A stretch of 64,000 nucleotides of DNA. Origin: Narcine bancroftii. Taxonomy: Eukaryota. The translations under genes and the position numbers were made by a program. Positions 5,150-6,704 of the stretch are shown here, in pieces. How positions within the stretch are numbered: the stretch's first letter is position 1; each line of letters starts with the position of its first letter. The notes below the pieces were generated by a model, which did no database searches, had not been told where the DNA came from, and was given only the letters and a program-made list of their open reading frames with translations. Where the stretch lies: the NCBI RefSeq assembly GCF_036971445.1, contig NC_091469.1:482546001-482610000 (forward strand), written 5' to 3'.

Positions 5150-6704
5150 ATGGCCATCCGCGTGGACCCGGCCGAGGAGCCGCGCATCTACCAGCAGACC
5201 CTGCTGCAGGACGGCCTCCGCGAGCTGCTCGACACCCGGCGCTTCGTGGACTGCGTGCTGAAGGTGCGGGGCCACGAGTTCCCCTGCCACCGCCTGGTGC
5301 TGGCCGCCTGCAGCGCCCGTCTGCGCGCCCGGCTGCTGGAGCCCGAGGCGGGCCGGGAGGTGGCGCTCGACGAGCTGGAGCCCGGCACCGCGGCGGTCCT
5401 ACTGCGCTACCTCTACACGTCCGAGGTGCCGCTGGACGACGGCAACGTGCGCGAGCTGCTGGAGGCCGCCACCGCCCTGCAGATCCCGTCCGTCTTCAGC
5501 CTGTGCGTGTCCTACCTGCACCAGCGCCTGGCGCTCGCCAACTGCCTGGCCCTGCTGCGCCTCGGCCTCGTGCTCGAGTGCCCGCGGCTCGCCGTCGCCG
5601 CCCGCGACTTCGCCTGCCAGCACTTCGGCCTGGTCAGCCGGGCCGACGACTTCCTGGAGCTGAGCCCCGACGAGCTGCTCGCCCTCGTGTCCAGCGACGG
5701 CCTCGACGTGGAGCACGAGGAGGCCGTGTTCCAGGCCGTGATGCGCTGGGCGCGCCACGACCCGGCCCACCTCGCCGCCTTGGGCCGCGTCTTCGACGGC
5801 GTGCGCTTCCTGCTGCTGCCCGCCGACTACCTGAGGGAGCGGGTGGAGGCCGACCCGCTGCTCCAGGCCCGGCCCGAGCTCCTGGCCAAGATTCGGCTGG
5901 TGCGCGACGTGCAGGAGGCCAGGGCACGCGGGGCCGAGGCCCAGGCCCAGGCAGGCGACGCCCAGGCCCAGGCAGGCGACGCCCAGGCCCAGGCAGGCGA
6001 CGCCCAGGCCCAGGCAGGCGACGCCCAGGCCCAGGCAGGCGACGCCCAGGCCCAGGCAGGCGACGCCCAGGCCCAGGCAGGCGACGCCCAGGCCCAGGCA
6101 GGCGACGCCCAGGCCCAGGCAGGCGACGCCCAGGCCCAGGCAGGCGACGCCCAGGCCCAGGCAGGCGACGCCCAGGCCCAGGCAGGCGACGCCCAGGCCC
6201 AGGCAGGCGGGGCCCAGGCCCAGGCGGGCCGCGGGGGACCAGGCCCAGGCCCAGGCGGGCCGCGGGGACCAGGCCCAGGCCCAGGCGGGCCGCGGGGACC
6301 AGGACCAGGCCCAGGCCCAGGCGGGCCGCGGGGACCAGGACCAGGCCCAGGCCCAGGCGGGCCGCGGGGACCAGGACCAGGCCCAGGCCCAGGCGGGCCG
6401 CGGGGACCAGGACCAGGCCCAGGCCCAGGAGGGCCGCGGGGACCAGGCCCAGGAGGGCCGCGGCGTCCTCAACGATGACCTGCGCTTCGGCATGTTCAGG
6501 AAGGACCTGATCTTCATGATCAGCGAGGAGGCGACTGTGGCCTACGACCCGGCCACCAACGGGTGCTACTTCGCCTCGCTCTCGGCCAAGGTCCCCAAGA
6601 ACCACGCCAGCCTGGTGACGGCCCACAACCAGGTCTTCGTCCTGGGCGGCCTCTACTACAACGAGGAGAGCAAGGAAAACCCCCTGCACTCCTACTTCCT
6701 GCAG
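5150..6704 (+). CDS. KLHL40: KLHL40 exon 1: BTB, BACK, repeat-expanded linker and start of the Kelch region; +1 frameshift at the G5 run 6233-6237 as assembled
   Basis: GCCATGG Kozak start. [23 protein letters not shown]...[12 protein letters not shown] matches the KLHL40/41 N-terminus. After the shift, [23 protein letters not shown]...[10 protein letters not shown]...YFLQ follows. Donor CAG|GTGGGT at 6704/6705. Confidence 0.93.
5939..6461 (+). repeat. Coding tandem repeat in the KLHL40 linker
   Basis: 12 perfect 21-bp units gcccaggcccaggcaggcgac (AQAQAGD), 2 variant units, then seven units of 30, 36 or 24 bp (GDQ(DQ)AQAQAGR type). Confidence 0.97.

Follow-up and report, generated by a model that had tools for sequence, protein, structure and literature searches.

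In KLHL3, residues A77, M78 and E85 contact Cul3, the last of them within a phi-x-E motif (M83-S84-E85), and substitution of either of the latter two (M78V or E85A) severely impairs the interaction (PMC3616122). KLHL41 is a CUL3 binder and forms a BTB-mediated heterodimer with KLHL40 (PMC5589419). Human KLHL40 itself is reported to be a protein without a phi-x-E motif that acts as a stabiliser (10.1101/2022.08.15.503206), and ubiquitylation of SAR1A by KLHL40-CUL3 has been reported using constructs of human SAR1A and KLHL40, in cells and in vitro (PMC10356137). Three general observations are also relevant here. Coding VNTRs occur widely (10.1101/2021.01.19.427332), large in-frame indels can be accommodated by disordered segments (PMC4494057), and GC-directed residue change has been described for GC-rich vertebrate regions (PMC6636035).

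We analyzed a window of 64,000 nucleotides of the genome of the electric ray Narcine bancroftii (contig NC_091469.1), which harbors a KLHL40 gene. Residues 1-257 of the deduced protein were 100% identical to RefSeq kelch-like protein 40 of this species (P0001), and the 14 best matches in a protein search were either named kelch-like 40/40b or unnamed. The Kelch part of P0001 (aa 307-614) matched KLHL40/KBTBD5 (4ASC) with an E value of 7e-151, compared with 3e-122 for KLHL41 (2WOZ). A separate locus in the genome (L026), which is 52% identical and possesses an ordinary short linker, looks like KLHL41 by its resemblance. Judged by its domains and sequence, with BTB, BACK and Kelch in order, the gene is the KLHL40 orthologue. 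A preliminary description of the same DNA had identified it as KLHL40, and both the protein matches and the preference for 4ASC over 2WOZ agree with that assignment.

The gene comprises six exons on the forward strand, and all five introns are GT-AG. The coding part of exon 1 (5150-6704) extends from the ATG to a GT donor at 6705 and includes BTB, BACK, a repeat and the start of Kelch, as indicated by identity to P0001, tblastn and RNA contigs that continue into exon 2. The BTB domain (5219-5527; aa 24-126) was detected using Pfam (PF00651, E 5e-22) and was modeled with pLDDT mostly >85, and the BACK domain (5543-5848; aa 132-233) matched PF07707 (E 3e-25). Exon 2 (8073-8233) is bounded by AG/GT and is present in RNA contigs. 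Exons 3 (12595-12702), 4 (15397-15582), 5 (21156-21302) and 6 (24068-24179, to the stop codon) were placed using tblastn and splice sites. Exons 2-6 are open and 80-89% identical to those of Hypanus.

No gene was evident by eye among ORFs of at least 110 aa in the 30 kb upstream of KLHL40. Integrase- and reverse-transcriptase-like frames were found at positions 1-1480 of the window and in the locus L031, and an LTR-like stretch lies at about 1190-1480. By visual inspection, the frames at 1-1480 appear to belong to a retrotransposon of the Gypsy type, situated about 3.7 kb upstream of KLHL40. A minisatellite of 42 copies of 52 bp, with C-runs of variable length, occupies 2769-5053 and ends about 50 bp before a TATA-like box at 5101. 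On the other side of the gene, a C2H2 zinc-finger exon at 60570-60962 (reverse strand) points towards KLHL40. This exon may resemble the end of ZBTB47/ZNF652, a neighbor of KLHL40 in the human genome.

Exon 1 contains a 523-bp minisatellite at 5939-6461, located between BACK and Kelch, with a 17-residue stretch of the BACK end before it and the GVLND motif after it. Tandem Repeats Finder scored the array at 562 and 395, far over the threshold of 50, and its presence is therefore not due to chance. The GC content of the array is 83%, and it is composed of GCCCAG/GACCAG hexamers. Unit parsing, together with Tandem Repeats Finder, revealed 12 identical 21-bp units encoding AQAQAGD (5939-6190), within which the contigs of three sequencing runs (X1, X2 and X3) break at 5968. 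These are followed by a 21-bp variant unit encoding AQAQAGG (6191-6211), a 31-bp unit, which is the fourteenth (6212-6242), one 30-bp unit (10 aa) and four 36-bp units (12 aa) in the Kelch frame (6243-6416), and a 30-bp variant unit (10 aa) with a 15-bp remnant encoding AQEGR (6417-6461). The order after the 21-bp units is thus 31, 30, 36 x 4 and 30 bp, then the remnant. As an array of tandem units of at least 7 bp inside a coding exon, this is a coding tandem repeat and a candidate VNTR. The 12 identical units and their place between BACK and GVLND had been recognized in the preliminary description, and both stand; a 24-bp unit that it also listed does not occur in our parsing. Further, its statement that all units are multiples of 3 fails at the 31-bp unit 6212-6242. 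Nor is its proposal of selection on the frame supported beyond ordinary purifying selection, as the array is built from hexamers.

Other genome matches to the array DNA were look-alike hexamer arrays (65-79%) and not copies of it. KLHL41 was rejected as the source of the array, which had no 20-mer in common with the KLHL41-like locus L026. The RNA fold signal of 5900-6500 (z -3.5, 20 shuffles) is uninformative, as any GC-rich tandem array self-folds.

Expression and length of the array were assessed using Logan contigs, which drop minor forms, from four runs (X1, X2, X3 and X7; 32 pieces listed, with 5112 more, and 15 joints listed, with 13 more). Spliced contigs classed X1, X2 and X7 as RNA: in each, exon 1 was joined to exon 2 at GT..AG, and the depth was zero at 7508-7963 in intron 1. 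X3 has the characteristics of DNA and possibly derives from the sample used for the assembly. Repeat contigs (58, 58, 66 and 60 bp) were present in all four runs, including contigs of the 30- and 36-bp units at 6243-6416, and their depth was similar to or above that of the exon flanks in each of the three RNA runs. The array is retained in mature mRNA, and minor skipped forms are possible.

The 5' contig ended at 5968 in X1, X2 and X3, which is the break predicted by simulation for a tandem 21-mer in a 31-mer graph. The 3' contig of X1 and X2 began at 6424 and differed from the assembly by one letter. When an allele was simulated in which a plain 30-bp unit precedes the remnant, both the 58-mer and the start at 6424 were reproduced; the assembled allele, by contrast, gave a start at 6400 and two pieces, of 48 and 40 bp, unlike X1 and X2. 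The RNA samples X1 and X2 probably carry another allele of the array. Because their contigs fit a different array end, length polymorphism is suggested, and the array is likely to vary in length between individuals. Bin sums normalized to the 5' flank gave rough copy numbers of the 21-mer of 2-4x in X1 and X2, 4-6x in X7 and 7-11x in X3, compared with 11.5 expected; this deficit could result from GC dropout and need not imply polymorphism.

The low 21-mer depth in X1 and X2 would also fit a repeat of only a few units that the assembly inflated to 523 bp, and among the 32 pieces listed no contig covered the G-run of unit 14 (see below) or spanned the whole array. Such inflation is scarcely credible, as the depth in the DNA run X3 is near that expected for 12 units, and the units form an ordered series of variants and not one stuttered unit. 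The array is real, and the earlier view of a very recent coding VNTR is borne out to the extent that the minisatellite is coding and young, occurs in RNA and probably varies in length.

As assembled, KLHL40 does not possess an uninterrupted frame. The G-run of unit 14 consists of five G (6233-6237), compared with four in six sister units, and the resulting +1 shift leads to a premature TGA at 6476-6478 after 442 aa, without Kelch. With one G fewer, the frame continues through the six exons and encodes 755 aa, 174 of them in the array, and for this shorter frame the previous estimates of a repeat of about 174 aa and a protein of about 755 aa hold. A G homopolymer in a repeat of 83% GC is a typical site of sequencing error. 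We consider the extra G to be likely a homopolymer error of the assembly, because exons 2-6 are intact and have accumulated changes at a rate similar to that in other rays (19 changes vs 15, p 0.6) and because the RNA is spliced.

If the extra G were real, the assembled haplotype would be a frameshifted null or a 442-aa BTB-BACK allele born inside an unstable repeat. Five G are present in the sequence as assembled, a null allele, if recessive, could be maintained in a heterozygous animal, and frameshifts in coding VNTRs do occur, for example in MUC1 (PMC10338300). However, the remainder of KLHL40 is intact and conserved, and spliced RNA is present although the stop sits 226 nt before the exon junction. 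A stop at this distance ahead of a junction should trigger decay. Further, simulation of the 5-G allele produced a unique piece of 68-84 bp, and neither this nor its full 84-bp form was among the eight pieces listed for each of the four runs, although pieces of 53-60 bp were listed; this absence counts against five G only if the listed pieces are the longest ones, as we assume. For a 4-G allele that includes the variant unit, a piece of 57 bp is expected, which was likewise absent among the pieces listed, and a 4-G allele without the variant unit fits the listed contigs. A real 5-G allele is accordingly unlikely.

The RefSeq annotation represents the same region differently. In the three RefSeq isoforms of KLHL40, X1-X3 (620, 614 and 610 aa), 406, 424 or 436 nt are skipped within the array. 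Each of these skips is 3n+1 in length and crosses the extra G, and each restores a length similar to that of the orthologues. Isoform X1 uses a GT donor and isoforms X2 and X3 use GC donors, and none has an acceptor with a pyrimidine tract. We infer that these introns are artefacts of gene modeling, by which the frameshift is bypassed. That the repeat is mostly spliced out, giving a protein of normal size, is nevertheless what all three models propose, one of them with a GT donor, and 13 joints exist beyond the 15 listed. None of those 15 lies inside the repeat, and no RefSeq form reproduced the contig pattern in simulation: isoforms X1 and X3 gave no break at 5968, and isoform X2 gave no 58-mer. 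Together with the 3n+1 skips over the extra G, the two GC donors and the poor acceptors, this makes splicing-out very improbable. Thus, in this nemaline-myopathy gene, a real coding repeat appears to be masked by the three RefSeq isoforms, which probably conceal an assembly error as well, and the annotation can be corrected.

A further observation concerns the 5' end of the transcript. At position 5198 of the window, directly after CAGCAG, the contigs of all three RNA runs branched, and those of the DNA run did not. A contig of run X2 carried there 41 letters that fit nowhere in 5000-8400, and the ATG at 5150 was uncovered. These findings are suggestive of an upstream alternative exon that is joined to a codon boundary at 5198; a library artefact is possible. 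Met198 is the sole other Met before the repeat, and if the upstream exon is non-coding, a BTB-less KLHL40 would start from Met198.

We compared the linker between BACK and Kelch with those of 239 other KLHL40 proteins, of which 226 were measured and 13 were missed by the anchors and left out of the count. The linker of these proteins is 11-58 aa long (median 40) and is basic and then acidic, in agreement with the preliminary description of a short, charged linker of about 40 aa as the normal state. Including the array, the linker of the ray would be 184 aa. It contains no lysine, compared with a median of seven in the orthologues, and the basic-then-acidic pattern is lost; these losses could affect function. 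Orthologous linker sequences vary freely, among rays as well. An AlphaFold model of aa 1-361 was confident for BTB-BACK, and a fold search using it matched KBTBD2, KLHL11 and KLHL3; pLDDT was <50 for residues 279-361. The linker is thus predicted to be disordered, as expected from the flexible linker proposed earlier. Protein searches, each with about 8000 candidates scored, revealed no KLHL40 of other electric rays beyond RefSeq models, and no account of this repeat was found by title in the literature on the KLHL40 linker, Narcine, the electric organ and Torpedo.

The preliminary description had suggested that the long tether could change the reach from Cul3 to substrate, which presumes that the protein binds Cul3. 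We therefore examined the alpha3-beta4 segment of the BTB domain (5312-5359; aa 55-70), which is the Cul3-contact region in relatives, by alignment with KLHL3 (4HXI) and orthologues. The A77 site is kept, the M78 site is Arg, and there is no Glu at the aligned phi-x-E site. The alpha3-beta4 loop is three residues shorter than in other rays, and alpha3 reads SARL, compared with S-[PSA]-[YF]-F in orthologues. The aromatic pair of alpha3 was absent in two of the 180 pattern-matched proteins (60 of 240 were unmatched), one of which was that of this ray, and 59 of the 180 possessed Arg at the M78-like site. Among 113 proteins listed, Arg combined with a changed loop was present in most placental mammals, in bamboo sharks and in this ray, and in none of the other rays, sharks, birds, reptiles and amphibians. 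Bamboo sharks (P0011-P0014) possess their own GP-repeat insertion in the loop.

Because these other groups keep an EES-type loop, the sequences suggest that the change of the motif was apparently reached independently in the ray and in placental mammals. With Arg at the M78 site and the phi-x-E loop shortened and changed, direct binding of Cul3 by KLHL40 of this ray is doubtful, and a longer tether therefore need not change the Cul3-to-substrate reach. The proposed mechanism is thus weakened. This side finding on the Cul3 segment may be more useful than the repeat. Most rays, sharks, birds and amphibians retain the canonical segment, and placental mammals, bamboo sharks and this ray possess an altered one; this variation provides natural constructs for the question of whether KLHL40 is a Cul3 adaptor or a Cul3-independent stabiliser.

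The composition of exon 1 points to a different driver. GC3 is 0.98 in KLHL40 exon 1, compared with 0.61 in exons 2-6 and 0.66 in exon 1 of the KLHL41-like gene. Among 60 lineage-specific changes in exon 1, F, Y, M, I, N or K was lost in 34 and gained in none, and G, A, R or P was gained in 18 and lost in none. Exons 2-6 lean in the same direction more weakly (8 of 15 changes lose an AT-coded residue and none gain one). Compared with Pristis, the change counts were 33 vs 3 in BTB and 23 vs 5 in BACK, and they were similar in comparison with Hypanus and Rhinoraja.

Perfect (GCCCAG)6 sites occur only twice in the 3.3-Gb genome, both times in long open frames, with 31 and 18 AQ. These two in-frame poly-AQ arrays are located on C15 of the genome (G000) at L003:1168-2118, near 5.31 Mb, and at L005:2-3109, near 234.27 Mb. 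The frame of L005 carries Pfam Retinal, and that of L003 may resemble ZGPAT. Further long GC-rich or GACCAG-based arrays with open frames are present at L007/L008 (G000:C11, near 195.38 Mb), L002, L004 and L006.

We propose, with a probability of about 0.6, that the array arose by slippage from a hexamer seed and amplification of 21- and 30/36-bp units, filtered by the reading frame, in a linker that tolerates changes in length. A hexamer seed would have slipped first in the GC-rich exon 1, and the 21- and 30/36-bp units would then have been amplified, likely by slippage and unequal exchange. The only filter on the array would be the reading frame, with the length of the linker being of little weight, and growth would presumably be neutral and the array polymorphic. 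The driver would be the GC-biased evolution of exon 1 and not selection for reach. The array is probably tolerated, given the predicted disorder of the linker. The product would consist of BTB-BACK, a long Ala/Gln/Gly/Asp spacer and Kelch, with at most 755 aa, up from about 615, and probably fewer than 755 in other animals.

Alternatively, the long tether and altered BTB may be a selected change towards a Cul3-independent stabiliser or chaperone with a longer reach, perhaps related to the biology of the electric organ or muscle. BTB and BACK evolve fast and exons 2-6 do not, a changed loop together with Arg at the M78-like site is found in placental mammals and bamboo sharks as well, and human KLHL40, which reportedly lacks a phi-x-E motif, stabilises proteins (10.1101/2022.08.15.503206). 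Against this, the substitutions are almost all GC-directed, AQ arrays occur in two unrelated coding frames as well, and the array looks length-variable. KLHL40 has also been reported to act with CUL3 on SAR1A, so that a changed motif need not end the use of Cul3 (PMC10356137). We regard selection as decidedly unlikely and favor slippage in a GC-driven exon.

If the protein is made, KLHL40 can accommodate an up to fourfold increase in the distance between BACK and Kelch, a constraint on models that require a fixed geometry between BTB and substrate. A more far-reaching scheme is speculative. KLHL40 of electric rays might be a Cul3-uncoupled stabiliser on a length-polymorphic tether of 100-180 residues that is hidden by false introns; the Cul3-contact motif might have been lost three times independently, in placental mammals, bamboo sharks and the ray, via GC-driven decay of exon 1; and a BTB-less form might be made from Met198 via the upstream exon at 5198. 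Improbable as it is as a whole, this scheme, if true, would offer a natural series to test the switching of KLHL40 between ligase adaptor and stabiliser.

The KLHL40 array belongs to a known type, the coding tandem repeats; its expansion is unusually large, and its annotation appears to contain an error. The order BTB-BACK-Kelch is the same as in other vertebrate KLHL40 proteins (KBTBD5; 4ASC; ray and shark orthologues P0002-P0012). In contrast to their charged linkers of 11-58 aa, the 184-aa linker of this ray is tandem and free of lysine. Human coding VNTRs, such as those of ACAN, MUC1, TCHH, TENT5A and LPA, likewise consist of in-frame units that change the length of the protein and are hard for short reads (10.1101/2021.01.19.427332). 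Unlike these, the KLHL40 array is lineage-specific and lies between two folded domains of a small adaptor; contigs are the basis for its presumed polymorphism, and it has no known phenotype. Disordered regions likewise tolerate large in-frame indels (PMC4494057), but the fourfold growth in KLHL40 exceeds all 226 measured linkers. Canonical Cul3 adaptors (KLHL3, KLHL11 and SPOP) combine alpha3 contacts with a phi-x-E motif, and KLHL40 of this ray fails this sequence test. Other rays, most sharks, birds, reptiles and amphibians keep the acidic EES-type loop, whereas the ray gene has also lost the PYF of alpha3. Its Arg at the M78-like site and its shortened, changed loop are features shared with KLHL40 of placental mammals, which lacks the phi-x-E motif (10.1101/2022.08.15.503206).
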